A stretch of 64,000 nt of DNA from Candidatus Nomurabacteria bacterium (GTDB lineage Bacteria > Patescibacteriota > Minisyncoccia > Phycocordibacterales > UBA918), in the NCBI GenBank assembly GCA_020632095.1, contig JACKGF010000002.1, positions 144,502 to 208,501 on the forward strand, in the 5' to 3' direction. A program made the translations under genes and the position numbers. Within the stretch, counting starts at the first letter, position 1; every line of letters starts with the position of its first letter. This document shows, in pieces, positions 4,019-52,798 of the stretch. Below the pieces are notes generated by a model that saw nothing but the letters and a program-made list of their open reading frames with translations, had not been told where the DNA came from and ran no database searches.

Positions 4019-4138
4019 AATTTCACCAGTTTATCATAAATACAATCAATCTATTCAACAACAAAAATTTTTGATTGACTTCGGTAAAATTTGGTATATA
4101 ACAAAAACAGAACCGTGTCTTAACATAGGAGGTGTCCT

Positions 4139-4534
4139 GTGAAAATGTTTGTCAGTTTAGTTATGACTGCACTTCTTTTTGTCTTTCCTGCGAGTGCATA
4201 TTCCTACCAACAATGCATCAAAACAGAAACTACATCCTCATACAATTCTAGCAAAATACTTATGGAAGAGTCACTGAATAATTATGAAATATGTCCTTGG
4301 CAACTGAAAGAAATGCAACGTTTAATTGCAAACCTGAGATATTTTCAGGAAGCAGAAAATGATCAGTTTGTCTCTGTCCTATCATTTCTGATCGGTAAAA
4401 GCTTGATCAGAAACGGTTCAGATGAGGACGTAGCTCGTGGTCAAGAGTATATAAAATACTCTATCGACATCATGCTCAAACACAATCCTTTTCCAAATGA
4501 CATAGTAGGTTACTTAGGAAGTCTAGATAAGTAA
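4139..4534 (+). CDS. hypothetical secreted protein
   Basis: signal-peptide-like N-terminus; promoter TTGATTGACT..TATATA and AGGAGG upstream; terminator 4551-4576. Confidence 0.5.
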   Translation: MKMFVSLVMTALLFVFPASAYSYQQCIKTETTSSYNSSKILMEESLNNYEICPWQLKEMQRLIANLRYFQEAENDQFVSVLSFLIGKSLIRNGSDEDVARGQEYIKYSIDIMLKHNPFPNDIVGYLGSLDK

Positions 4535-6808: not shown

Positions 6809-7010
6809 AGTAAAACGATCATATCATATTAAATAGTATTATCTGGCTATCAAGGATGGAGATTGGAGCTTTATGTTTAAATCAACTGAACTTGAAAAAA
6901 CAAACCTAACGTACACTAGGAACTAAATAGCAATATAAAAAGAAAACTGCCCGCAGGACAGTCTCCAACAGGCAGTTTAGGTATCCTTTTAATACCTATC
7001 TATTGTTTAT

Positions 7011-7070
7011 CAAAATATAAAATATTAAAAACACAAACTTACATTTGTGTTTTTAATATTTTATATTTCA
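7011..7070. repeat. 26-bp perfect AT-rich inverted repeat (hairpin)
   Basis: AAAATATAAAATATTAAAAACACAAA / TTTGTGTTTTTAATATTTTATATTTC around a 6-nt loop. Confidence 0.8.
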
Positions 7071-8009: not shown

Positions 8010-8501
8010 TTGTATAATACAAAAATGATTGATCTATCAAACTATGATTCTCTACGAAAGGACTCCCACGCTTGGTTTCATGCTCTTAAACCAGTCGAAT
8101 CACCTGTTCTAAATAATTTGATTCATTTTACCTCTGAGGGATTTGAACATATCATATACAAAAGTGCTCGATCAGAAAGAGATAAATCATCCCAGATAAT
8201 GCGCCTAAAATTACTACCTTTAGCAATTAAACTAATAGAAACATCTACCACATTCCAAGAATACGAAGAAACTATAAAACAATTTATAGTGAAACAATGT
8301 AAGAAAAAAGTGCAAATCTCAAAAAGAGTGCAATACTGGGGCATTATCGCTATCATTGAAGGAAGAAAGATAAAAGTAATTATCCGAAAGATCGGGAATG
8401 GCAAACACCATTTCTGGAGTGTTGTCCCTAGCTGGACCACAAATAAATTTAGAGATACTAAATTTGTCTCCACCATGAAGGGCAGCCCAGAAGAAGACTA
8501 A
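8010..8501 (+). CDS. hypothetical protein
   Basis: 163-aa ORF; followed by hairpin CCACCAGGAGGTGGTATTTTTAG. Confidence 0.4.
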   Translation: MYNTKMIDLSNYDSLRKDSHAWFHALKPVESPVLNNLIHFTSEGFEHIIYKSARSERDKSSQIMRLKLLPLAIKLIETSTTFQEYEETIKQFIVKQCKKKVQISKRVQYWGIIAIIEGRKIKVIIRKIGNGKHHFWSVVPSWTTNKFRDTKFVSTMKGSPEED

Positions 8502-8652
8502 AAATACCACCAGGAGGTGGTATTTTTAGGAGTGCTCGCCTTCAGCTTATGTATTAGCCGAATAGGGCTGACGCCCCACAAGCACACTTTCACTATATTC
8601 TCCAATATATACTATGTCAAGACGCTATTATCCCCTATGAGTTAAAGGGGCA

Positions 8653-8760
8653 ACTCCGGAGGTTGGTCCTCCGTGAACCACGCCCCTATCTCGGGAGCTT
8701 ACGACGACAAAAATACCCAGCCTGAAGCTGGGTATTTTTGTCGTAGCTGGCCGTCTCGGG
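8653..8760. repeat. repeat module copy 1: 27-bp hairpin unit A (8653-8679) plus 77-bp hairpin unit B (8684-8760)
   Basis: near-identical copies at 10571-10597 (A') and 11067-11142 (B'); B contains a 16-bp-stem hairpin GACAAAAATACCCAGC/GCTGGGTATTTTTGTC. Confidence 0.8.
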
Positions 8761-8917
8761 CTAGAACCGTCTGATAACCTTACCCTGCTTGACTGAATAG
8801 CTATCTCAAAATTATCTAAATCGACGCGTCTCGTGCGCTATAAAAAGTGACAAAAGTTACACATATTTGCATATGTCACAATGTTACATACCATTGTCAC
8901 TTTTAGTTATTTACTGA

Positions 8918-10423
8918 CTACTGTGGCTCGTTTATATTTACAACACCCTCTGCTTCTTCTTGTACAGCATCTAAAACACCCCAAAGCGCATTGATTACTT
9001 CTTCACCTAAAAAATCAGCAAGTTGTCCAGAGGGCCTTTCTTTACCAATAACTTGAGCAGTACGAAGAGTCCAATGAATTCTTCTTGTATCTAAAATCTG
9101 CTCTAGCTCCTTTATCACAGGCTTAACATCATGAGTCTTTCTGTCCCAAGTCGCAGCTGTTCGTAATAATTCTGCTTTAGCCCCGAAAGTATCTGCTTGG
9201 CTAACAATCAATTGGACAGCATCTGTCCAATTAGTTCCCAAAGCTGTAAGTACATCATCAGTTATATATAGATTTTCTGACTCATGGCAAGATAGTTGAA
9301 TATACTTAATCTGATCTTGAGGATTCTCTGAGCTTGGGGTCGGCTTACCCTTATCAGCATCAATAAGAGCATACCCTGCTAACCCAAGTATAGGATCACG
9401 TAATGCAGAAAAAATTTGTTGAAGTGATTTTTGATATTGTTTAATTTCCTCACCTTGTGAAGGTATAACAGAAAAAGAAACTACATGGTGTCGAGGAATT
9501 TGACTCCAAATTCTATAATCATCATCACCTTCTACCAAAAGTATTGGAACTCCAAATAGTGGACCCATAAGTGCATGGCCACCTAAACAGGCGGAAAGTT
9601 CCTTTGTGACATTATCAAAAGGCTTTGCTTCAAATGTATCATTTGCTCTATTAAGGTAAACAACGCTGGATGACTCCCCAGCAAATTGACCTACCGAAGC
9701 CATTAACGTAGTACTGTGTGTAGCTATTATAATTTGAAGAGAATACTTTTCTGCGACTTGTATCAAAAAATCGGCGAACCTAACTTGTAAATCAGGATGG
9801 ATATGCGCATCTGGCTCATCGATAAGCATTATTCTCTCTGACTTCTGTTCTATTTCCCAAATAGCAGAAACTGTTAGTACATCGAGACCAATCGTCAATA
9901 GTTGAGCTTCACCACTACTTAGCTGTTCAATACCAGATACTCTAGTTTGATCTAAGGCTCTGGTTAGTAAATACGGAGGATTTTCTTTACTATTTAGTTC
10001 AATTTGGAAGTCTGGTATCAACTGACTGATTAAACCCTCTAAATCTGAGGGGTCACCCAAATCACCATATTCAACACCTTTTCTGATACCACCTCTTGTT
10101 GTGAAATATGCTGGTATTCTAGTAATAACATGTTGCCGATAATCAGCTGAATAATTTCCCTTACTGTACTCACTACGCTTAGTACTACTCAACTCTTCTT
10201 GAAGCCATGCTGGTTGCATATCCAAGGTTCCCGTTCTCTCTGGAATTACATAATGGATACTATCAACAGCCTGATCCCTAAGTGATCTCAGTAGTAGACT
10301 TTTACCAGAACCATTTTTACCAAATAGAATAGTTACAGAATTTAAATTAGTAACTGACCAATTACCACCACCAAGAGGACTTGGTCGAGGAATAGTAATT
10401 GAATTCCTATAGGGTAATCTCAT
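8918..10423 (-). CDS. OLD-family ATP-dependent endonuclease (ABC-type ATPase plus TOPRIM)
   Basis: Walker A GKNGSGKS, Walker B/D-loop LIDEPDAHIHP, C-terminal TOPRIM-like PILLVEGDDDYRIW. Confidence 0.75.
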   Translation of the reverse strand: MRLPYRNSITIPRPSPLGGGNWSVTNLNSVTILFGKNGSGKSLLLRSLRDQAVDSIHYVIPERTGTLDMQPAWLQEELSSTKRSEYSKGNYSADYRQHVITRIPAYFTTRGGIRKGVEYGDLGDPSDLEGLISQLIPDFQIELNSKENPPYLLTRALDQTRVSGIEQLSSGEAQLLTIGLDVLTVSAIWEIEQKSERIMLIDEPDAHIHPDLQVRFADFLIQVAEKYSLQIIIATHSTTLMASVGQFAGESSSVVYLNRANDTFEAKPFDNVTKELSACLGGHALMGPLFGVPILLVEGDDDYRIWSQIPRHHVVSFSVIPSQGEEIKQYQKSLQQIFSALRDPILGLAGYALIDADKGKPTPSSENPQDQIKYIQLSCHESENLYITDDVLTALGTNWTDAVQLIVSQADTFGAKAELLRTAATWDRKTHDVKPVIKELEQILDTRRIHWTLRTAQVIGKERPSGQLADFLGEEVINALWGVLDAVQEEAEGVVNINEPQ

Positions 10424-10933: not shown

Positions 10934-10958
10934 GAGTTAACTGCCGGACAGGGACTCG
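10934..10958. repeat. attL-like direct repeat: displaced copy of tRNA-Gln 3' end
   Basis: CTGCCGGACAGGGACTCG (10941-10958) identical to 17019-17036; flanking GAGTT also shared. Confidence 0.7.
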
Positions 10959-11066
10959 GTCAGGAGTCACTAACTATAATTGTTCACTTCGTTCCAATTC
11001 TAGTAAGTGCTCACGACCCTGGCGGGTCAAACAGTCTCCCAGACTGTTTGCTTCCGCCTTTCTCAT

Positions 11067-11142
11067 CCCTATCTCGGGAGCTTAAAACGACAAAAATACC
11101 CAGCCTGAAGCTGGGTATTTTTGTCGTAGCTGGCTGTCTGGG
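11067..11142. repeat. repeat unit B' (copy of 8684-8760, about 95 % identity)
   Basis: CCCTATCTCGGGAGCTTAAAACGACAAAAATACCCAGCCTGAAGCTGGGTATTTTTGTCGTAGCTGG... Confidence 0.8.
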
Positions 11143-11194
11143 ACGATGTTCGAACTTTTTTAATAACTTAAAGTAAGTGACTAGGTACCAAAAC

Positions 11195-12496
11195 CTATTT
11201 TGCTTTCTTCTCTACCACAGCGTCAACTGCCTGCTTGACTATGACTTCATCAGGAATCATTTCATACAGCTTATCAACCATAACCATGAGATTATCGACT
11301 CCAATACTCACCACGTTTTCTTTTTTTTCTTTCTTGGAATTCTCCTCAACCTTTGCACCTACCTCCTGTTTAAAAGGCTCTGTGTAAATAGACTTAAAGG
11401 TATCTATTGAAAAATCAAGCACACGTTTATTGTCTTTAAATTTATCAAGCAAGAATTCAATATGGTTTCTAACCGCTGCAGCACTAGCTGCTTTAAAAGC
11501 ATACTTTTCCAAAAATTGTCTTTCTTTTGAGTATTGGACTGCTGAAAATAGTACTAGAAAAATAAGCGGCGATGTATAAGCAAAGCGTGTAAAAAAGCCT
11601 TCAATACCTGTAAGGTCTTTCAAACTCAATTCTATTAGTATCAACAAAATAATTCCGCCCAACATCAGATACTTCCATGAAAATAAGTCTGAATCTAAGC
11701 TTTTCGAAATTTCATTCTTTCTCTTTTCAAACGTATGAGCAAAACTACCGTCAATCACCAATCCTGACACTTCCTCAACTTGATTTTTCTTCTCATTAAC
11801 CTCATCCAAAGAAGTCTTGATGTCACTCAAAAAATCTGTAGAGCGTTGCTTAATGTCGACAATCTCTTTTTCATTCGTTTTGGAGACTTTCAGTGATTCA
11901 TTTATCTCTGCGACTAGTTTAACTGAATCTAACTGAGCCTGCTGGACAAGCTTAAGAACAGCATCTAAGCCCGAGTTCTTATCATCAATCTTCTTCTTAA
12001 TTTCAGTAAATTCAACAAAAGCTGTTTTCATTGCTTCAGCCTTTTGTTGGAAATCAACCAACAACTTGTCAGATTTACTCAAATTCTCCTCTGCACTCTT
12101 TTTATACTTCGCAATATCCTCATCTAAACTCCTTGAGCTTTTTAAAAGTGCCGTAATTTCGCCATCATTACCCCGTACCTGACCTTCTAGAGCGGCTGCA
12201 CTTTTACTCAATTCTTGAAGCTTGTCTATTGTTGTTTTGGCAGCATCTAAGTATCCACTTATACCAGTACGTGTCTCTTGTATCTGGTCAAGTGAAACCT
12301 TTGCTTGATTTTGCAGTGCCTGCACTCCAGTCTTGATTTCATCCGTTTCAGTTACAATACTTTCAGCAGCATCACTTGCCTTTTGATAACGAATCTCCAA
12401 CCCTTCGATGTTATCCAAGGTTTTCTTTGCTTTTGTATACCGCCCTTTGACTGTTTCAAGGAATTGTTTTATTTCGGCAATTTGCTGTTCATCCAT
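11195..12496 (-). CDS. coiled-coil protein with two central TM helices (cargo of element; possible effector)
   Basis: about 270 aa E/K/Q/L-rich heptad N-terminus, TM helices LMLGGIILLILIELSL and SPLIFLVLFSAV, about 110-aa C-terminal domain. Confidence 0.5.
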   Translation of the reverse strand: MDEQQIAEIKQFLETVKGRYTKAKKTLDNIEGLEIRYQKASDAAESIVTETDEIKTGVQALQNQAKVSLDQIQETRTGISGYLDAAKTTIDKLQELSKSAAALEGQVRGNDGEITALLKSSRSLDEDIAKYKKSAEENLSKSDKLLVDFQQKAEAMKTAFVEFTEIKKKIDDKNSGLDAVLKLVQQAQLDSVKLVAEINESLKVSKTNEKEIVDIKQRSTDFLSDIKTSLDEVNEKKNQVEEVSGLVIDGSFAHTFEKRKNEISKSLDSDLFSWKYLMLGGIILLILIELSLKDLTGIEGFFTRFAYTSPLIFLVLFSAVQYSKERQFLEKYAFKAASAAAVRNHIEFLLDKFKDNKRVLDFSIDTFKSIYTEPFKQEVGAKVEENSKKEKKENVVSIGVDNLMVMVDKLYEMIPDEVIVKQAVDAVVEKKAK

Positions 12497-12555
12497 TACT
12501 TAATAATAAACACCCGATGTAGTCATTGTGTCAAACACAAAGCTATGGTCTAAAC

Positions 12556-13092
12556 TTATTTAACAATGTATTCAGACATCTCAGCAACTATATTCCTAAA
12601 ATTATCTCCAACGTTGATTCTTCTGAGTGTTAGTTCAGCATCCTCAAAAACGCCATCAACTAACTGGTCACGCTCCATTCGACTAGGTTTATTATGAGAA
12701 CCACCGTCTAGTTCAATTGCCAGTAACGGCGTCATTCTGTCGTTACAAATCAAGAAATCGACGTGTTTTGGCAATATTTGATTACGTCTTTGGTAGTAGC
12801 CATTACCATTAACAACATCCACCATATCGGCAATACGCATTTTAGGAAAAACGAAGTAATTTTCTGGCAAACCTGACAGCAAAGCTTGAAACAGCGCCAT
12901 TTCACTATCGTTCATAATCACAGCTTTCTTTTTGTACTCCCGTTGTTTTTCAACCACTACTTCCCTGACGACTTTCTGTTTAAAGGGTGAGATTAACTTA
13001 TAGAAAAGCCATTTAATAAATAACGCACACAGTAGAAGAAAGATTACAAGAAAGACTAGATTGAAAAGTAACTGCAACAAATTAGTTTCCAT
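12556..13092 (-). CDS. DUF2726-like (restriction-endonuclease-fold / NERD-like) protein with N-terminal TM anchor
   Basis: N-terminal hydrophobic helix; YFVFPKMRIADMV..VDFLICNDRMTPLLAIELDGGSH..RDQLVDGVFEDAELTLRRI pattern typical of DUF2726. Confidence 0.55.
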   Translation of the reverse strand: METNLLQLLFNLVFLVIFLLLCALFIKWLFYKLISPFKQKVVREVVVEKQREYKKKAVIMNDSEMALFQALLSGLPENYFVFPKMRIADMVDVVNGNGYYQRRNQILPKHVDFLICNDRMTPLLAIELDGGSHNKPSRMERDQLVDGVFEDAELTLRRINVGDNFRNIVAEMSEYIVK

Positions 13093-13149
13093 ATGTGCTA
13101 ACTATAGTCTGTAGAACTTTAGTTATCAAATTCATACTCTGGATAGCAA

Positions 13150-13359
13150 ATGACTAAGCCTATCCTAGTAAAGTTTGGAAAGCGTGTTCGGACAATCCGA
13201 GCCGAGCAAGGCATCTCCCAAGAGAGACTTGGTGAACTGGCTGGCGTTCACAGAACGTACGTTGGAATGATTGAACGAGGTGAGAAAAACATCACTCTGA
13301 CCAACATTGAAAAAATCGCTAAAGCACTGAGGGTGCCCCTGAAATCTCTAGTGGATTAG
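13150..13359 (+). CDS. XRE-family helix-turn-helix transcriptional regulator
   Basis: TIRAEQGISQERLGELAGVHRTYVGMIERGEKNITLTNIEKIAKAL is a classic Cro/C1 HTH. Confidence 0.8.
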   Translation: MTKPILVKFGKRVRTIRAEQGISQERLGELAGVHRTYVGMIERGEKNITLTNIEKIAKALRVPLKSLVD

Positions 13360-13393
13360 GGATAATTACCCACCAACGTGATTTTATGGTTCA

Positions 13394-14263
13394 ATGGCGA
13401 CAATGTCGCTACAAGACCAGAAAATTGCAAAAACTCTTGAATTACTCGTCATGCTGTCACGTTCAAAACAGCAGTTTTCGCATGGTCAATCGGATGAGGA
13501 GAAGGCCACTCTACGCATAAGCCGACAACTAATCACTGATTCACAACTTTCAGTGCCGGAATTTACAAACGCTCTGCACGCTATAGCTGAAAAAGGATAC
13601 CTGTGGCATGTAGTTATTTTTGATGAAAATCTTCGTTCGCAGATGAATGAATTCATCAATAGTCCTCAATACTCAGAAGTAGTAGATAGACTTAAAGAAC
13701 TCGACACTAAAGATACTTCGGATAAATTAAAGCAATCAGCTGTCACAGACCTCAAAAAAATTATCCCTCATGGTACACAGGTAAACCAAGAGTTAGTAGA
13801 CCAAGATTTTATAAAAATATCAGAAGCCTTTTCTGTAGGAATAGGGTCATTCAAACAGATGCGTCCTGATGAAATTGGACTGGTTATCTTAATGCCTTTT
13901 CGAGATATCTCTGTTCTCTTAGACAAAATCAACAATGATGAAAAATTTGATGAAATCAGAAATGACGGCTTTTGGTATGACCAACAGAATTTTATCTTTT
14001 ACATTGATGAATCACCCATCCCGACAAGTTACCGAGGCAATCCAAATTTAGAGCACTATATCATTGCAAGCTTCTACAACAACCCTAAGCTTAAAAGCAT
14101 TGACTACGAAGAAATGGTTGGATTTGACCCCTCCAAGACTAATGAGTCATACCAACATGCAATGCGCAGGTTTATCGAAAAACATCCATCACTTGAAAGG
14201 ATTTTTACACCCCATAAGTACAGCACTGAGTTCCATTCTGACAGATACAACCACACTCCATAA
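13394..14263 (+). CDS. hypothetical protein (element cargo)
   Basis: 289-aa ORF co-directional with and 35 nt after the XRE gene; no recognisable motif. Confidence 0.45.
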   Translation: MATMSLQDQKIAKTLELLVMLSRSKQQFSHGQSDEEKATLRISRQLITDSQLSVPEFTNALHAIAEKGYLWHVVIFDENLRSQMNEFINSPQYSEVVDRLKELDTKDTSDKLKQSAVTDLKKIIPHGTQVNQELVDQDFIKISEAFSVGIGSFKQMRPDEIGLVILMPFRDISVLLDKINNDEKFDEIRNDGFWYDQQNFIFYIDESPIPTSYRGNPNLEHYIIASFYNNPKLKSIDYEEMVGFDPSKTNESYQHAMRRFIEKHPSLERIFTPHKYSTEFHSDRYNHTP

Positions 14264-14509
14264 ACCTATCAATTGTACTCAACCAGTGACCAATACCCTA
14301 GAGGTAATGGTCATTTTTAGTAAATCAATCATTGAAGAATACAGAGCCGAGATGGCTAACACCTACGGTGTTTTCGTGAGTGATGCTGATGCCCAGATAC
14401 AGTTACTAAGACTTGTTCGCAGTATGTTTCCTAATGTCATTACGACTACTGGCATGCGAGAGCCTGTCGCAGGGGATGGCGTGTGCCGACCCTGCGCAGG
14501 CTCGCCTGA

Positions 14510-14540
14510 CGAAGTCGGGGCTAGTATTACCCCGACTTCG
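14510..14540 (+). promoter_or_regulatory. rolling-circle origin stem-loop with nonanucleotide TAGTATTAC
   Basis: CGAAGTCGGGG-CTAGTATTA-CCCCGACTTCG: 11-bp perfect stem with circovirus/nanovirus-type nonamer at 14522-14530, 28 nt upstream of Rep ATG; second imperfect hairpin at 14458-14504. Confidence 0.75.
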
Positions 14541-14567
14541 GGACAAGATAATTAATAAATAAATTAA

Positions 14568-15515
14568 ATGGATAATAATGATATAAAAAGCGCTCGATAT
14601 TGCTTTACGATTCACAATTACACAAAAGACGAACTGAAACAGTTCCACCAATTAGCTCAGTCCCTAGAAAAGCACCGATTTATTGCCTACGGATTAGAAG
14701 TCGCTCCAGACACTGGAACACCTCACATTCAAGGCTATGTTGAACTTAACAAATCACAGAGATTTACCTTTCTTCACAATTACTTCAACATCAAACGTGG
14801 GAAGAAACTATTAAAATTTCATGTGGAAATTGCAAACGGTACTGCTGAGCAAAATCGAAAATATTCAAGCAAAGAAGGTAACTATTTTGAGTTTGGTGAA
14901 CCAGCAACCCAAGGTAGTCGAACCGACTTGAAAGAAATTAAAAGATTACTAAAAGAAAATCCCAACAACCTCGTTGCTGTCATCGAAGAACATGGGAATA
15001 ACTATCAGCAGATACGATTCGCTGAGACACTGCAACCATATTTCATGGCAGACCGTGACCCTGATAATCCTCCAACGGTAATTTGGATTTTTGGTTCAAC
15101 TGGAATTGGAAAAACGTCAATGGTGTATAGAACTTTCGGAAAAGAAAACGTCTGTTCAGTCTCTGCATACAACTGGCTCGGCACTGGATATAGACAACAA
15201 GAATGTTTCCTTATGGACGACTTCCGAGCTGATGATTTAGCCTTCAACACTCTTCTAAAAATTACTGACCGCTTCCCTTTCACCCTAGAGCGTAAGGGTG
15301 GACAAGTTCCCTTAAATTCGCCTTACATCATCTTCACCTCACCAAGAGCAATTAGGTACACCTATCTGAGCATCGGTGAAAAGGTCGAACAGCTACTTCG
15401 TAGAGTAAAAGAAATTAACCTAGACTTAATAATTGATGACTCTGGAATAGACCTGAGAAATCTAGATGAGAAATACGTTTACAAATACGTCAATTATCCT
15501 AAGGATGACTTCTAG
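14568..15515 (+). CDS. rep: CRESS-DNA-virus-type replication initiator Rep (HUH endonuclease plus SF3 helicase)
   Basis: motif I CFTIHNY, motif II PHIQGY, motif III YSSKEG; Walker A GSTGIGKTS, Walker B LMDDF, motif C IIFTSP. Confidence 0.85.
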   Translation: MDNNDIKSARYCFTIHNYTKDELKQFHQLAQSLEKHRFIAYGLEVAPDTGTPHIQGYVELNKSQRFTFLHNYFNIKRGKKLLKFHVEIANGTAEQNRKYSSKEGNYFEFGEPATQGSRTDLKEIKRLLKENPNNLVAVIEEHGNNYQQIRFAETLQPYFMADRDPDNPPTVIWIFGSTGIGKTSMVYRTFGKENVCSVSAYNWLGTGYRQQECFLMDDFRADDLAFNTLLKITDRFPFTLERKGGQVPLNSPYIIFTSPRAIRYTYLSIGEKVEQLLRRVKEINLDLIIDDSGIDLRNLDEKYVYKYVNYPKDDF

Positions 15516-15551
15516 TGCATAATGCTACTTATAGTCATCATCTGAATCATT

Positions 15552-17066
15552 ATGAGTAAATATGTCCTCTATGCACGAAAGTCCTCTGAAAGCGAAGATA
15601 GGCAAGTAAAATCACTAGACGCACAAGAGTCTGAAATGCTCACCATTGCTAAGCGTGAAGGACTAGAGATTGTAGAAATCATTCGTGAATCACATTCAGC
15701 AAAAACAACGAAGCAACGACCCGAATTCAACCGAATGATTAAGGGTGTACAGTCTGGCAAATACACTGCCATTCTGACATGGGCACCTGACCGAATCTCT
15801 CGTAACGCTGGTGACCTTGGTGTAGTCATTGACCTAATGGACGCAGGAAAACTTCAATGTGTAAAAACCTACTCACAAACGTTCTTCAATGACCCATACA
15901 GCAAGTTCATGTTTATGATGCTCGGCTCCCAAGCCAAGCTAGAAAACGACCAAAAGAGCTTGAATGTAAAACGAGGTAACCGAGAAAAGCTAAAACGTGG
16001 CGACTGGATTAATTCAGCGCCTTTTGGCTATTTGAATGACAAAGCAACTAAGACTATTGTCCTAGACCCTGAACGAGCTCCATATGTATCTCAAATGTTT
16101 GAACTGTATTCATCTGGACTCTATAGCCTTAAACAAATAGCTTCCCTTTTGTTTGATAAAGGACTACGCACTAAAGGCGGTAAAAAACTAAGTGCTGGTC
16201 AAATTCATAAAATCATCAACCGCACCTTCTACTATGGGGTTATGGAATCTGACGGAAAATACTATCAAGGCAATCACGAACCTATAATCTCTCAGAAACT
16301 ATTCGAACAGTGCCAAGAAATATCTGGAAGCAAATCACGACCTCGCAAGAAAACGAAGGGCTTTACCCTATCTGGATTCATTACTTGCGATAAGTGTGAC
16401 TGTGCCGTTACTGCCGAATTAAAGAAAGGTAAATATATTTACTATCATTGCACTAATGGTAAGGGTATTTGTGACCAAAAATCTTTCAATACAAACGAAG
16501 ATACTCTCCATGACTTTATTACTCTAGACATGAAAAAGCTAAAGATTAGTCAAAGAATGGTAGATATCGTATACACAGCGAAACTAGAAGAATTAAAACA
16601 ATCTGGTGACTTTCATAACCATGCACTAGACACTGCTCGTAAAGCTCTAGAATCGCTCTCTATGCGTAAATCAAGGCTGATTGATACCTTCACTGCTGGC
16701 GACATAGAAGAGACACTATATCGTGAAAAACTACTAACACTCGATAATGAGAAGGTGAACCTAGAAAAACAAATCGTTGAAATTGAGAAAAATAACCCTG
16801 ACCCGTACACAACTATCGAACTCGTCTATAATCAGTTTAAACGAGGCTATACAATGTCGAAACGGTACAGAGATGCTTCACCAGAAGAAAAACGAGAAAT
16901 TCTCTCAGACGCACTATCGAACTCCAAGCTACTAGATAGAAATATCGTTGATTTACAATACAAAAGCCCGTACGATGTGTTCGCACGGACTCCTGTAAAT
17001 GCCTCTTTTTCAGAGTTGCTGCCGGACAGGGACTCGAACCCCGATAGACGGCACCAAAAACCGTAG
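15552..17066 (+). CDS. large serine recombinase/integrase
   Basis: N-terminal resolvase domain with catalytic Ser (YARKSSESEDRQ..SLDAQ), recombinase domain, Cys-rich zinc ribbon (CDKCDC..HCTNGKGIC), C-terminal coiled coil; last about 16 codons overlap the tRNA-Gln 3' end. Confidence 0.85.
   Translation: MSKYVLYARKSSESEDRQVKSLDAQESEMLTIAKREGLEIVEIIRESHSAKTTKQRPEFNRMIKGVQSGKYTAILTWAPDRISRNAGDLGVVIDLMDAGKLQCVKTYSQTFFNDPYSKFMFMMLGSQAKLENDQKSLNVKRGNREKLKRGDWINSAPFGYLNDKATKTIVLDPERAPYVSQMFELYSSGLYSLKQIASLLFDKGLRTKGGKKLSAGQIHKIINRTFYYGVMESDGKYYQGNHEPIISQKLFEQCQEISGSKSRPRKKTKGFTLSGFITCDKCDCAVTAELKKGKYIYYHCTNGKGICDQKSFNTNEDTLHDFITLDMKKLKISQRMVDIVYTAKLEELKQSGDFHNHALDTARKALESLSMRKSRLIDTFTAGDIEETLYREKLLTLDNEKVNLEKQIVEIEKNNPDPYTTIELVYNQFKRGYTMSKRYRDASPEEKREILSDALSNSKLLDRNIVDLQYKSPYDVFARTPVNASFSELLPDRDSNPDRRHQKP
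17013..17036. repeat. attR-like direct repeat (within intact tRNA-Gln 3' end)
   Basis: GAGTTG-CTGCCGGACAGGGACTCG; 18-mer identical to 10941-10958. Confidence 0.7.
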
Positions 17067-17088
17067 TCCTACCATTAGACGATCCGGC
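17020..17088 (-). tRNA. tRNA-Gln(TTG)-like (Glu/Gln-type D arm); integration target
   Basis: minus-strand RNA GCCGGAUCGUCUAAUGGUAGGACUACGGUUUUUGGUGCCGUCUAUCGGGGUUCGAGUCCCUGUCCGGCA; anticodon stem ACGGU/GCCGU, loop UUUUGGU; T-loop UUCGAGU; acceptor/D-arm geometry slightly non-canonical by hand folding. Confidence 0.55.
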
Positions 17089-17175
17089 AAGGGATCTGTT
17101 TCTGTCAGTTACTAAAAGATGTAATCAAATAGATATCTGCTTTGGTGGGCCTAGGATAGCATAAACTTCGTATAT

Positions 17176-17482: not shown

Positions 17483-19153
17483 TTATTTTATCGTCTCGTA
17501 CGCCGCTTTCACAAAAGCAGTAAATAGTGGATGGGGGTCAAGTGGTCTTGCTTGAAGCTCTGGATGGAATTGTACCCCGACAAAGAAAGGATGATCTTCA
17601 AGTGGTAGTTCGGCAATTTCCATAAGGGTACTATCTGGAGACTTACCGGAAAACCGCAGACCTTTTTCTTCAAGTAAAGGAATGTATTCGGGATTAACTT
17701 CATAACGGTGACGGTGACGTTCTAGAATAGACTGTGATTTGTATGCTTTGGCGGCCACTGAGCCCTTGGTCAGGTTGGCAGGATATTGACCGAGTCGCAT
17801 CGAACCACCCATCTCTTTGTTGGCAATTTTGTCTTTTTGTTCAGCCATAACACCAATCACCAGGTGTTCTGCATTAGGATTTATCTCTTCAGTACTTGCG
17901 TCTTTCAGTTTGGCGACATTTTGTGCATACTCCAGCACCGCTAACTGCATTCCGTAACAAAGACCAAAGTACGGCACCTTGTTCTTGCGGGCGTATTCAA
18001 TCACATTTAATTTGCCTTCAATACCAGTTTTGCCAAATCCCCCTGGCACCAAGATACCATCGTAATTCTTCAGTTTCTTTAATTGCGCTTTATCTTCAAA
18101 ATCATGAGCTGACAGGTACGAAATCACTGGCTTAAGTTTTAGTTTGTAGGCAGAAAACTTGATTGCTTCCAAGACAGACAAATACACATCAGACAAAACA
18201 AAGTCTCCAGAATTGAAATATTTACCCACCACCGCGATCTTTACTACATCATTCTCTACCTTAGAGCTGTTTACAAATTGTCGCCAAGCCTTAAGATCAA
18301 CTGCTTGTTTCATTGGTAAATTCAAAATCTCGGTCAATTGCAATGAAAGCTTGTCTTCTTCAAAATTAAGTGGAATCTCGTAAATATTTTTCACGTCAGG
18401 AGCCGAAATAACATTTTCAACCTTCACGTTACAAAACTTAGAAATCTTTTCCTTACGCTTATCGTCCACTCCAATCGGACTGCGACACACAATCATATCG
18501 GCAAATACTCCAGCGTTATTAAGGGTACGAACAGCGGTCTGGGTAGGTTTGGTTTTCATTTCACCAATCGAACCAGGGACCGGTAGATAGCTCACCATCA
18601 CGACAGCAACGTTTTCTGGTTCTTCAGATTTCATCATACGAATCGCTTCCAAAAAGAGCACATTTTGGTATTCCCCAACCGTACCTCCCACCTCAACTTG
18701 TACTACATCAGCTTTAGCCTCAGCCCCCGCCTGCTTAATACGCCGAATGACTTCGAGAGGAATATCAGGTACCACCTCAACACATAGTCCGTTATATTCT
18801 AAATTTCGTTCTTTTTGAATCACTGACTGGTAGACACTACCAGTCGTCATGTAGTTGATGTTGGGTAAATCGGTATTTAAAAAGCGTTCATAGTTACCCA
18901 TGTCTTGGTCAGTTTCGAGACCATCCTTTAAGACAAAAGTTTCTCCATGGACAGTTGGGTTCATAGTACCCGCGTCCACATTAATGTATGGGTCAATTTT
19001 CATCGCAGTCACCTTGTGACCTCTGGCCTGCAGTAGGGTCGCAATTGAAGAAGAAGCAATACCTTTCCCTACTCCACTCATTACCCCACCAACAATGAAA
19101 ATGTATTTTTGAGCCGGCTGTTTAGCAGTCGTTTTAGTTTTAGTTTTTTTCAT
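17483..19153 (-). CDS. pyrG: CTP synthase
   Basis: N-terminal synthetase GGVMSGVGKGIASSSIATLL; C-terminal glutamine amidotransferase (GLCYGMQ, HPE). Confidence 0.95.
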   Translation of the reverse strand: MKKTKTKTTAKQPAQKYIFIVGGVMSGVGKGIASSSIATLLQARGHKVTAMKIDPYINVDAGTMNPTVHGETFVLKDGLETDQDMGNYERFLNTDLPNINYMTTGSVYQSVIQKERNLEYNGLCVEVVPDIPLEVIRRIKQAGAEAKADVVQVEVGGTVGEYQNVLFLEAIRMMKSEEPENVAVVMVSYLPVPGSIGEMKTKPTQTAVRTLNNAGVFADMIVCRSPIGVDDKRKEKISKFCNVKVENVISAPDVKNIYEIPLNFEEDKLSLQLTEILNLPMKQAVDLKAWRQFVNSSKVENDVVKIAVVGKYFNSGDFVLSDVYLSVLEAIKFSAYKLKLKPVISYLSAHDFEDKAQLKKLKNYDGILVPGGFGKTGIEGKLNVIEYARKNKVPYFGLCYGMQLAVLEYAQNVAKLKDASTEEINPNAEHLVIGVMAEQKDKIANKEMGGSMRLGQYPANLTKGSVAAKAYKSQSILERHRHRYEVNPEYIPLLEEKGLRFSGKSPDSTLMEIAELPLEDHPFFVGVQFHPELQARPLDPHPLFTAFVKAAYETIK

Positions 19154-23613: not shown

Positions 23614-23625
23614 CCGCAAAGCCCT

Positions 23626-23668
23626 AAAACAAAGGTCGCCTCACACAGTGAGGCGACCTTTGTTTTAG
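23626..23668 (+). terminator. rho-independent terminator after tRNA-Asp
   Basis: AAAACAAAGGTCGCCTCAC..GTGAGGCGACCTTTGTTTT. Confidence 0.6.
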
Positions 23669-25198: not shown

Positions 25199-25392
25199 AT
25201 GACATTCATTATACTATATCCACATATAGACACTCACCTATTTATACCCTTGAAAGATTTATATTATGTTGTAAAGAAATCTCATTATACATATCAACAA
25301 AAACCTAAATGTGAATAATCAGAAGAATATTGACTTCGCTCGTTCGATTCCAACGAGAGCAAAGCAGTTTATTCTCTTACCCCGCAGAATAA

Positions 25393-25433
25393 GTAAAGAA
25401 AAATACCGATATGAAATCGGTATTTTTCTTTAC
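25393..25433. repeat. 18-bp perfect inverted repeat hairpin
   Basis: GTAAAGAAAAATACCGAT-ATGAA-ATCGGTATTTTTCTTTAC. Confidence 0.8.
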
Positions 25434-25646
25434 TTGTTGCAGAGATACGAGAGAATTGGAATCAGATACTAAATGCCCTTGAAAATATGAGCGGACAAGC
25501 ATAGCTTCCCCTATCTCAATCTTTATGTTAAGGGATGGAGGCATGAGGGAAATGCAAATAAATACTATGTATAAATACCTCTCTAAAAAATTATGATTTA
25601 ACAAAAAACCACTCCCATATTCAAGAGTGGTTGATCTATTTAAGAA

Positions 25647-33113: not shown

Positions 33114-33814
33114 ATATCTAACGTACGCTGTGTTACCGTAGTCTGAATCTGATAGGTTTTAGAAGTCAAATTATTAGCTTCTTTAGCTTCAATAAAAATT
33201 GTTACGGAAGGCTGATCTTCATAAGTAGCCCCACTACCAGCACTTAGTTCATTGCTGCCTGATACAAAAAACTCTGCTTTAGTAATATAAATTCCTGAAG
33301 AGGTAACTGGTTCTGGAACATCGTCACCTACTCTACGCATTATTTTTCCTTGATTAGCACTCCCTGAAACATTATCAAAATAGTAAAGAATTCTAGACCT
33401 TGAGGCTCCAGTAATACTACTGCCTGACTCTTCAAAAGATATTCCCTGTAATTTATCACTTCCACCAGCACCTAAATAACAATCATTTACGCTATCATTC
33501 AATGATTCCTGACTATCAGAAATATCAAAAATAGCCTGTGATCCACCGGCGCTATAATTTGGTCTACCGGCACAGTAATAGTTAGTTCCTGTTCTAATCT
33601 CTCTAGTCATACTATCAAGAGCGAAAGATAAGTTGGTCATAACGCTTTGTTCATCTTGTAGTTGTTCATTTGATGACACTAACACCAGTAACGCCCCGAC
33701 AGAAACTGTCACCACCACTGAAAACAAGGCCAATGAAACAATAATCTCTATCAGACTGAAACCAGATTGTAAATACGAATCATTAACCATGTTTATATTA
33801 TACTTCACTAACAT
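33110..33814 (-). CDS. type IV minor pilin/pseudopilin
   Basis: SGFSLIEIIVSLALFSVVVTV prepilin N-terminus. Confidence 0.7.
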   Translation of the reverse strand: MLVKYNINMVNDSYLQSGFSLIEIIVSLALFSVVVTVSVGALLVLVSSNEQLQDEQSVMTNLSFALDSMTREIRTGTNYYCAGRPNYSAGGSQAIFDISDSQESLNDSVNDCYLGAGGSDKLQGISFEESGSSITGASRSRILYYFDNVSGSANQGKIMRRVGDDVPEPVTSSGIYITKAEFFVSGSNELSAGSGATYEDQPSVTIFIEAKEANNLTSKTYQIQTTVTQRTLDI

Positions 33815-52053: not shown

Positions 52054-52751
52054 ACCCGATAAAAAAAATGTCTGGCTTAATCACTAAAGTTACTGACCTA
52101 TCACCAACCGCCCGTGAGTATGTAATTAAACCATCTGAACTAATGCCCTTTACTGCAGGTAGTTTTGTAAATTTATTTGTTGAACATAGTGGAGAAAAAA
52201 TCCGCCGAGCTTTCTCAATGTCATCAGCAGATACAAACCCTGATGAATTCGCAATCACCATAAGACTTAGCCCAAACGGAAAACTAACCCCTTTACTGTG
52301 GGCAGAGGATTATGTTGGTAGAGAAATAGAACTGATGGGACCACTAGGACTTAACACAGCTGATAAAATGACTGCTTCAAAAACTTTTTTGTTTGGATTT
52401 GGAGTAGGAGCGGGAGTGGTCAAATCCCTGGCAGAAAACTTGGGAGCCAGAGATAATCTTAATTCTCTAACAATTGTAACCGGCAATCGAAGTACTGAAG
52501 AAATTCTACACAAAGATTTTTTTGACAGCTTATCTGAGACAAATGAAAAAGTATCAGTGAAGTACGTTGTATCAGATAATTCTCAAACTATATATCCAAT
52601 TGGACACATACAAGACCATTTAACTGAATATGATTTTAGCAACAGCGATGTCTATATGTGCGGGCAAGGAGTTGCCTGTGATGCTCTTGAAAAAACTATC
52701 AGTTCAACCAATCCCACAAATTGTAATTTTTTTGTTGAAGACTTTCATTAA
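52050..52751 (+). CDS. FNR-like FAD/NAD(P)-binding oxidoreductase
   Basis: FAD-binding RxxS motif (RRAFSMSS), Gly-rich NAD-binding stretch (LFGFGVGAGV); start overlaps previous stop. Confidence 0.6.
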   Translation: MNPIKKMSGLITKVTDLSPTAREYVIKPSELMPFTAGSFVNLFVEHSGEKIRRAFSMSSADTNPDEFAITIRLSPNGKLTPLLWAEDYVGREIELMGPLGLNTADKMTASKTFLFGFGVGAGVVKSLAENLGARDNLNSLTIVTGNRSTEEILHKDFFDSLSETNEKVSVKYVVSDNSQTIYPIGHIQDHLTEYDFSNSDVYMCGQGVACDALEKTISSTNPTNCNFFVEDFH

Positions 52752-52798
52752 AAACAAAACAGCCCATGATGGGCTGTTTTGTTTTTTTTGTTTACAGA

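Follow-up and report, generated by a model that had tools for sequence, protein, structure and literature searches.

An integrated element with a viral-type replication module

We analysed a 64,000-nucleotide stretch of a Candidatus Nomurabacteria contig (the window; positions are counted from its first letter) that contains an integrated element at 10941-17036. The element is a unit of 6,078 bp, the spacing between two 18-bp repeats of the 3' end of a tRNA-Gln gene. Its core consists of a gene for a replication initiator protein (Rep, 315 aa, 14568-15515, + strand), a stem-loop just upstream of this gene (14510-14540, + strand), and a gene for a large serine recombinase directly downstream (15552-17066, + strand). 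The stem-loop presents the nonanucleotide TAGTATTAC at its apex, as do the origins of DNA viruses that have circular, single-stranded genomes and encode a Rep (CRESS-DNA viruses). It is very probably the double-strand (plus-strand) rolling-circle origin of a ~6.1-kb integrative plasmid-like element in the Candidatus Nomurabacteria chromosome.

The stem-loop reads CGAAGTCGGGG/CTAGTATTA/CCCCGACTTCG. Its arms (14510-14520 and 14530-14540) form 11 perfect pairs around the 9-nt loop CTAGTATTA. An exact copy of TAGTATTAC lies at 14522-14530 on the rep strand (+), with its final C forming the first base of the 3' arm and the remainder in the loop. A nonanucleotide of the NANTATTAC type at a stem-loop apex, the feature that marks a CRESS-type origin, is thus present. 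This perfect stem with the nonamer at its apex had been proposed in an earlier reading of the window made from the letters alone (the original prediction), and both sequence and folding confirm it. The same reading placed the hairpin 28 nt from Rep; its position just upstream of the gene holds, and by measurement 27 nt of AT-rich sequence separate the stem from the rep ATG (14568). Folding, which had been suggested as a check, also agrees. As single-stranded DNA, positions 14450-14570 fold into a pair of neighbouring hairpins (-36.1 kcal/mol; z = -8.15), a stability that no sequence in a set of 200 shuffles reached.

Taken singly, neither the nonamer nor a long hairpin is remarkable in this window. 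TAGTATTAC occurs twice versus 0.55 times expected, and a count of two was reached in 10 of 100 shuffles. The second copy (33411-33419, - strand) is surrounded by ordinary sequence, forms no hairpin and has no Rep in its vicinity, and we set it aside as a chance occurrence. Perfect hairpins of 11 bp or more abound, with 19 distinct examples versus 0-1 in shuffles; the others are mostly terminator-like, with 3-6 nt loops and A/T-run flanks, in contrast to the 9-nt loop of the origin. Chance does not explain the combination of the two features. When the flanks around the nonamer were shuffled, a stem of at least 8 bp arose in 0.6% of trials and one of at least 11 bp in 0.035%. The combination is improbable because the loop that holds the nonamer is large, the stem is not followed by a T-run, a Rep gene lies directly downstream, and the arrangement is conserved.

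The long perfect hairpins of the window form a pattern of their own. With stems of 11-25 bp and loops of 3-6 nt, mostly flanked by an A-run and a T-run, they recur every ~3-4 kb (for example, 7013-7068, 23624-23668, 25391-25435 and 52750-52786). Their form suggests bidirectional intrinsic terminators, which in this genome are unusually long and regular.

Rep combines an HUH nuclease domain (Pfam accession PF02407, Viral_Rep) with a superfamily 3 (SF3) helicase domain (Pfam accession PF00910, RNA_helicase). The nuclease domain contains motif I (CFTIHNY), motif II (PHIQGY, with E44, H53 and Q55) and motif III (Y99-SSK), and the helicase domain contains a Walker A motif (GSTGIGKT) and a Walker B motif (DD217-218). 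The catalytic motifs are intact. We identified 140 database hits to Rep, about 110 of them at 47% identity or more. In an alignment of 49 sequences drawn from these hits, E44, H53, Q55, Y99, G179, G181, K182, D217 and D218 are invariant, and T14 of motif I is nearly so.

The Rep sequence is identical to H6784_05765 (MCB9814884.1), a protein annotated as 'hypothetical protein' in a Candidatus Nomurabacteria metagenome-assembled genome (MAG). Among solved structures, the profile of the 49-sequence alignment is closest to Rep of porcine circovirus 2 (PCV2; 7LAR), which it matches over the full length (E 8.5e-58); Rep domains of nanoviruses and of other circoviruses match as well. The window Rep and PCV2 Rep share 34% identity over 279 residues. 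No match to Rep was found in 72,556 PLSDB plasmids or among PHROG families, and matches in the phage collection were weak (<30% identity) and limited to rodent-faeces CRESS and microvirus-like records.

Conservation of the stem-loop beside related rep genes

We identified related loci (designated by L numbers) in a genome, a metagenome and a viral collection. A single Rep protein used as query matched nothing in the genome collection, and an alignment-based scan yielded 12 loci there. These loci come from MAGs labelled Minisyncoccia, Kaiserbacteria, Paceibacterota or Paceibacteria, and 'Saccharibacteria', with one labelled Crocinitomicaceae and two unclassified. The metagenome collection contributed ~29 additional family members with Rep identities of 47-98%. 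The viral collection contained distant relatives only, on sequences of ~2 kb at identities of 39% or less.

The motif [T/C]AGTATTAC within a stem of at least 8 bp is present at all family loci that include enough upstream DNA, both the 12 genome loci and the metagenome loci, and the hairpins sit 20-59 nt ahead of the start of the rep match. The 26 distinct upstream sequences have stems of 8-14 bp with 10 different 8-bp cores, including GAAGTCGGGG/CCCCGACTTC, GTTGCCATAG/CTATGGCAAC, TGGTTGCCTA/TAGGCAACCA, ATGTCGTG/CACGACAT and AGGGTCGAGG/CCTCGACCCT, and AGTATTAC is invariant among them. In an alignment anchored on the predicted arms, and so fitted to the structure, 100% of cells are paired, both-sided changes occur in 8 of 8 pairs, and the covariation score is 1.11, compared with 0.26 for shuffled sequences and no more than 0.18 after sliding of the partners.

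The stem-loop structure is therefore conserved beside its cognate rep, with compensatory changes in the stem. The original prediction had named a lack of conservation beside homologous rep genes as the outcome that would count against it. That was not the outcome: the hairpin lies beside every homologous rep with enough upstream DNA, which supports the proposal of a circovirus-type origin used by the adjacent Rep.

Repeats and a second hairpin around the origin

An iteron-like tandem repeat, GGGACA / AGATAA (GACAA GATAA; 14540-14551, + strand), abuts the 3' arm and is a candidate Rep-binding site. Most relatives have two clear short tandem repeats directly 3' of the stem, and these change along with the stem type. 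The repeat units are GGACAnnnGGACA or AGACA, GGGAAAT x2, GGGACT x2, and GGACA x2 (as sequence, GGGACAnnnGGACA or AGACA, GGACAGGACA, and GGGACTGGGAC or GGGAAATGGGAAAT), and the iterons of the L006 type are clean (GGGACATTTGGACA). Circoviruses have iterons at this same position.

A GC-rich imperfect hairpin lies immediately 5' of the origin. It had been noticed from the letters and is real, with its ends one base from those first assigned (14460-14503, + strand, not 14461-14504). Strong hairpins (z ≤ -2) occupy this position in ~19 of 27 loci. Their sequences differ by lineage while the structure persists, as in GTTTCC...GGAAAC hairpins with differing interiors and in GGCGGGTGCCGGGAC...GTCCGGCACCGCGCC. 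Between the window and a 98% relative (L093), a C-G pair of this hairpin is replaced by T-A. The second hairpin is absent from a distant subclade (L010-L012 and L111-L117). Being just upstream of the predicted nick, the second hairpin would be the last sequence displaced during replication; in pMV158-type plasmids, the single-strand origin is located at that position. The hairpin is a candidate single-strand (lagging-strand) origin or, alternatively, a Rep accessory site.

GC enrichment at this locus is restricted to ~14450-14545 (~95 bp, 66% versus 40% in the flanks) and does not extend over the whole 300-bp stretch ahead of rep, as had been supposed.

Gene content and attachment sites

The element contains a tight rightward string of five genes, which encode a 69-aa helix-turn-helix (HTH) protein, a 289-aa protein, an 82-aa protein, Rep and the integrase, and two cargo genes that point leftward. 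The HTH protein (13150-13359, + strand) is of the Cro/cI type (Pfam HTH_3, E 5e-17) and matches PHROG transcriptional regulators/repressors. It is conserved in L003, L004, L093, L098, L100 and L102. Its gene is the first in the rightward string, and it is likely the repressor of the element.

The 289-aa accessory protein (13394-14263, + strand) is conserved directly upstream of the origin in at least 10 loci and has 18 database relatives. It matches H6784_05760, a Candidatus Nomurabacteria 'hypothetical protein', at 100% identity over 99% of its length. An AlphaFold2 model (pLDDT 68) is mostly helical, with a confidently predicted C-terminal alpha/beta domain that is winged-helix-like and gives weak fold matches (E ~0.5) to OmpR/PhoB DNA-binding domains. 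We considered and rejected a capsid assignment for this protein, which is helical and winged-helix-like rather than a jelly roll and lacks a significant fold match.

The 304-bp spacer between the 289-aa gene and rep, which the original prediction took to be entirely non-coding, holds a conserved small gene (82 aa, 14307-14555, + strand). Its core, FS..LI.EYQ.EM...YGV.VS...AQ.QL..LVRS.FP, is found in 18 loci, with pairwise differences of 0.38, 0.27 and 0.59 at the first, second and third codon positions. Because third positions vary most, the core appears to be a translated gene, and other pipelines also call it as one. The tail of the open reading frame (ORF) reads through both hairpins. Its frame and stop vary between loci, with the stop falling anywhere from 120 nt before to 2 nt after the rep ATG, and the hairpin-spanning part is therefore mere read-through. 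A longer ORF, 14064-14555, had been dismissed as just a translation of the hairpins. This description fits its 3' tail, and its 5' part, which overlaps the 289-aa gene, is spurious, but its middle (14307-~14430) belongs to the conserved gene.

The 82-aa protein has no Pfam or PHROG match; a regulatory or recombination-directionality role is conceivable. The start codon of its gene is overlapped by an 11-bp inverted repeat (TGACCAATACC / GGTAATGGTCA, 14287-14313) with 91% complementarity and a 5-nt gap. This repeat is operator-like and is possibly a site for the HTH protein or for the winged-helix-like 289-aa protein.

The integrase (504 aa) has the catalytic, recombinase and zinc-ribbon domains of a large serine recombinase (Pfam Resolvase, Recombinase and Zn_ribbon_recom; PHROG integrase, E 2.8e-87) and adjoins an attachment site. 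Wherever a family locus extends far enough, a serine recombinase gene comes directly after rep, and the order origin-Rep-recombinase is conserved. The last 16 codons of the recombinase gene (17019-17066) are the complement of the tRNA-Gln gene. Many relatives share this feature, with the recombinase ending inside an opposite-strand tRNA gene that is mostly Gln and in other cases Ser or Asn. Excision would instead carry the recombinase frame into 10959 onwards, where it would stop five codons sooner (...LPDRDSVRSH*), so that the integrase would differ slightly between the integrated and excised forms.

The integration target, tRNA-Gln(UUG) (17018-17089, - strand), was identified by ARAGORN and by Rfam (53.9 bits); Rfam found four tRNAs and nothing else in the window. 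The 3' end of this tRNA gene (17019-17036) is the attR core. The attL core, the 18-bp direct repeat CTGCCGGACAGGGACTCG at 10941-10958, is an identical copy. Comparable repeats of tRNA ends bound units of 5,902 bp in L001, 5,865 bp in L111 and ~6,129 bp in L004. Just past the tRNA gene lies a CTP synthase gene (17483-19153), which is found at the same place in L003, L004, L097, L099 and L106. Recurrence of this neighbour in five other independent assemblies indicates that the insertion lies in genuine chromosomal context.

The two cargo genes encode a 433-aa coiled-coil protein with hydrophobic C-terminal segments (11195-12496, - strand) and a 178-aa nuclease-like DUF2726 protein (Pfam accession PF10881, E 4.3e-21; 12556-13092, - strand). 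The 433-aa protein, taken from the ORF list, has a sub-threshold DUF948 match and a PHROG match over its coiled-coil stretch only, and DUF2726 recurs in several related elements. In close relatives (86-94% nucleotide identity), the core is kept and the leftward cargo is swapped, including at the position of the 433-aa gene. Cargo of these relatives includes a DUF87/TrwB-type ATPase in L181 and an FtsK/SpoIIIE-type protein in L179. Pfam and PHROG searches found no phage structural match among the proteins of the element, apart from a 'head' hit that is an artefact of the coiled coil. The element looks like an integrative plasmid, not a provirus.

The left end carries a motif (11067-11168) composed of a hairpin and GCTGGCTGTCTGGGACGATGTTCGAACTTTTTT that is kept at the left ends of the related elements L181 and L182. 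Within it, a 76-nt sequence (11067-11142) is repeated at 95% identity 2.4 kb leftwards, outside the element (8684-8759). The repeat consists of a hairpin, ACGACAAAAATACCCAGC...GCTGGGTATTTTTGTCGT, followed by AGCTGGC[C/T]GTCT. The adjoining motif, GCTGGCTGTnTGGGAyGATGTTmGAACTTTTTT, is the part kept at the left ends of the related elements (L181, 88-127; L182, ~6950-7010). The 76-nt repeat could be a remnant of an older tandem-inserted element, or a conserved terminator or binding site.

Just outside attL, we identified a gene for a 501-aa ATPase (8918-10423, - strand) with AAA_21/AAA_15 matches and PADLOC matches to AriAB, GajA and PtuA. These models represent defence ATPases of the OLD/Gabija/PARIS type, and the outer copy of the 76-nt repeat lies just past the 3' end of the gene. 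An earlier insertion at this tRNA may have left the gene, possibly a defence gene, behind. The stretch 8480-8930, which was compared with the attL region, contains no third copy of the attachment core; no dedicated search was made further left. In a promoter scan, sites were no more numerous than in shuffled sequence.

Other contigs bear on the attachment sites. L094/L183 carries a 97%-identical Rep-integrase module with no tRNA gene after the recombinase and was considered as an attP junction. We rejected this assignment, as its right flank does not match the left end that this element has in L182. About 75 nt past its attachment core, this contig contains an inverted copy of the core (GACAGGGACTCGAA ... 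TTCGAGTCCCTGTC, within 4114-4260). Four short-read contigs from different runs (L173, L177, L181 and L182) end exactly at or within the attachment core. These ends hint that alternative junctions (integrated, excised, or in different hosts) coexist in the samples, and they prove nothing.

Comparison with known replication systems

The module closely resembles those of Circoviridae and other CRESS-DNA viruses (Cressdnaviricota, such as PCV2). In both, [T/C]AGTATTAC occupies the apex of a GC-rich stem of ~9-11 bp, the origin shortly precedes rep and is on the same strand, short repeats in tandem (one copy degenerate in the window) adjoin the 3' side of the stem, and Rep couples HUH motifs I-III (HxQ type, YxxK) to an SF3 helicase. 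The comparison with circovirus origins that had been recommended thus comes out in favour of likeness, in the type of nonamer, its placement on the rep strand and the full-length alignment with PCV2 Rep. The nearest viral contigs hold the same nonamer in hairpins, some of which have near-identical stems (for example, GGGTCGGGG and GGAAGTCAGGG).

The element also differs from these viruses. Circoviridae have genomes of ~2 kb with a capsid gene, package single-stranded DNA and infect animals, whereas the element is ~6.1 kb, has no capsid-like gene that we could find, and occupies a site in a Patescibacteria chromosome by means of a serine integrase; the hosts of CRESS viruses are eukaryotic. Unlike those of CRESS viruses, its origin is embedded in the tail of a conserved small gene, and another GC-rich hairpin comes before it. 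The hairpin belongs to an integrated element and not to a virus, and the element lacks the features that define membership of the family Circoviridae.

Bacterial elements with viral-like Reps have been described as pCRESS1-9 in four bacterial phyla (PMC6668415). Most are integrated, often at tRNA genes, with direct repeats, variable cargo and no capsid gene. They use tyrosine recombinases, and the text of that paper does not mention Patescibacteria (PMC6668415). The element described here shares with them a bacterial location, a viral-like Rep with HUH and SF3 domains, flanking attachment repeats and the lack of a detectable capsid gene. It differs in its large serine recombinase, which is present in all family loci in place of a tyrosine recombinase, and in its Patescibacteria hosts.

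We compared Rep with references from Supplementary Data 3 of Kazlauskas et al. 2019, which include seven pCRESS sequences, all from pCRESS1-3 of the nine groups. In BLAST comparisons, the window Rep scores 138 bits with CRESSV3 and 116 with PCV2, versus at most 73 with pCRESS2, 60 with pCRESS3 and 45 with pCRESS1. In a neighbour-joining tree of 45 sequences, the family is monophyletic (100 of 100 bootstraps) and sits beside CRESSV3 and environmental contigs of 2-4 kb. The family and the viruses together are separated from pCRESS1-3 and GasCSV in 81 of 100 bootstraps. As a rough distance tree with few references, this placement of Rep nearer to viral Reps than to pCRESS1-3 is a lead and not a result.

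The element can also be compared with rolling-circle plasmids of the pMV158/pE194 type. In both, an HUH Rep nicks a hairpin loop at the double-strand origin (a prediction for the element), and the nick is closely preceded by a large imperfect palindrome. This palindrome is the single-strand origin in the plasmids; its counterpart here, the hairpin at 14460-14503, is only a candidate for that role and is missing from one subclade of the family. Plasmid Reps of this type differ in having no SF3 helicase domain, relying instead on host PcrA/UvrD, and in their nick sequences.

Proposed mechanism and alternative explanations

These comparisons suggest how the element might replicate. The large serine recombinase would excise it by attL x attR recombination, yielding a 6,078-bp double-stranded circle. 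Rep would bind the tandem repeats abutting the 3' arm, and the inverted repeat would be extruded or melted. The HUH domain would then cut the + strand of TAGTATTAC between T7 (14528) and A8 (14529). Circovirus (PCV) and geminivirus Reps are the basis for this predicted nick position. Tyr99 would become linked to the 5' phosphate, with the metal held by Glu44, His53 and Gln55, and the 3'-OH would prime leading-strand synthesis rightwards through rep as the SF3 helicase domain unwinds the duplex. After one round, cutting of the regenerated hairpin and joining of the ends would release a single-stranded circle. Conversion of this circle to a duplex may be primed at the GC-rich hairpin at 14460-14503, the last part displaced. 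The nick position and the enzymatic steps are modelled on homologous systems (InterPro text; review PMC8780604).

Several observations weigh against a rolling-circle origin or temper the evidence for it. No excised circular copy was found among the fetched family contigs, and terminal overlap was found in none. The second iteron copy is degenerate in the window (GACAA / GATAA, 14542-14551). The covariation counts are biased towards the structure by the anchoring of the alignment on the predicted arms. A plain MAFFT alignment of the origins is out of register at the 5' arm, an effect of differing loop lengths. The uncounted list of stem variants shows the same compensatory pattern independently of the covariation tool. 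Finally, because the origin is embedded in the 3' tail of a small gene, within a string of genes read in one direction, it is probably transcribed as well and might have an additional role at the RNA level.

This position, at the end of a small ORF in a co-directional string, is also what would be expected if the hairpin were mainly a transcriptional element before rep (a terminator, attenuator or other RNA structure) whose likeness to a nick site is incidental, particularly as GC-rich perfect hairpins are common terminators in this genome. However, no T-run follows the stem, a terminator scan did not list the hairpin, and its 9-nt loop sets it apart from the short-looped, mostly A/T-flanked hairpins elsewhere in the window. 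The invariant loop AGTATTAC and changing stem are the reverse of what a terminator needs, and the nearest viral contigs hold the same nonamer in hairpins. We give this explanation almost no credence. An explanation that would keep the nick is that the hairpin is a transfer origin (oriT/nic), instead of or besides a vegetative origin, with Rep acting as a relaxase and a single strand being exported. HUH relaxases and rolling-circle Reps use the same chemistry. The cargo of close relatives includes FtsK/SpoIIIE-type or DUF87/TrwB-type ATPases of the kinds found in DNA-transfer systems, and FtsK-like genes are listed in pCRESS1 elements by Kazlauskas et al. (PMC6668415). Yet Pfam and PHROG searches found no translocase, coupling protein or other transfer gene in the window copy, and its Rep has the full viral-type HUH and SF3 architecture and groups with CRESS-virus Reps rather than with relaxases. 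Actinomycete FtsK-type systems, moreover, move double-stranded DNA, for which a nick is not needed. Transfer is thus an improbable function for the hairpin, if the least improbable of the alternatives weighed here.

The Rep tree raises a further possibility, that of a prophage: a single-stranded DNA virus of Patescibacteria that has integrated here and whose replication product is packaged by a capsid too divergent to recognise. In that rough tree, viral and environmental contigs of 2-4 kb surround the family, and the 289-aa and 433-aa proteins have no assigned function. Neither protein is a convincing capsid, however: the former is predicted to be mostly helical and winged-helix-like, not a jelly roll, and the gene for the latter is replaced by unrelated genes in close relatives. 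No protein of the element has a PHROG or Pfam structural match beyond the 'head' hit to a coiled-coil stretch, and the known bacterial elements with viral-like Reps are capsid-free as well (PMC6668415). We consider a provirus very unlikely, slightly more so than a transfer origin, and favour a rolling-circle origin of an integrative plasmid-like element.

Implications for Patescibacteria and CRESS-DNA viruses

Bacterial integrative plasmids with viral-like Reps were already known. Features that appear unreported are the Patescibacteria hosts, the serine integrase and a Rep closest to viral Reps, and this canonical CRESS-type origin apparently belongs to an undescribed family of integrative plasmids. 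We found no description that combines Patescibacteria or Parcubacteria, a CRESS Rep and a serine recombinase in the literature searched, the coverage of which was incomplete, so that an earlier description is possible.

The element places a complete circovirus-style module, composed of a nick hairpin, iteron-like repeats and an HUH and SF3 Rep, in the Patescibacteria. This group is very large and mostly uncultured, and few plasmids have been described from it. The family bears directly on whether CRESS-DNA viruses had their source in bacterial plasmids, as has been proposed, because its Rep appears nearer to viral Reps than to those of the known bacterial groups, and it offers a testable data point. 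It also calls for caution in viromics: Rep or nonamer hits in metagenomes can derive from bacterial chromosomes.

A bolder proposal, which we regard as possible but doubtful, is that the family is the prokaryotic lineage most closely tied to the module of the circovirus/CRESSV1-3 type (Rep, TAGTATTAC hairpin and 3' iterons). If so, the family may represent the plasmid stock that gave rise to that part of the eukaryotic CRESS-DNA viruses, or these ultra-small bacteria may be the actual hosts in which some ~2-kb 'CRESSV3-like viruses', recorded from metagenomes alone, replicate. A less novel alternative is a recent capture from virus to bacterium, as proposed for pCRESS9 in phytoplasmas. For the Patescibacteria themselves, a native cassette of origin and rep, together with a serine integrase that targets a tRNA gene, could seed the development of genetic tools.

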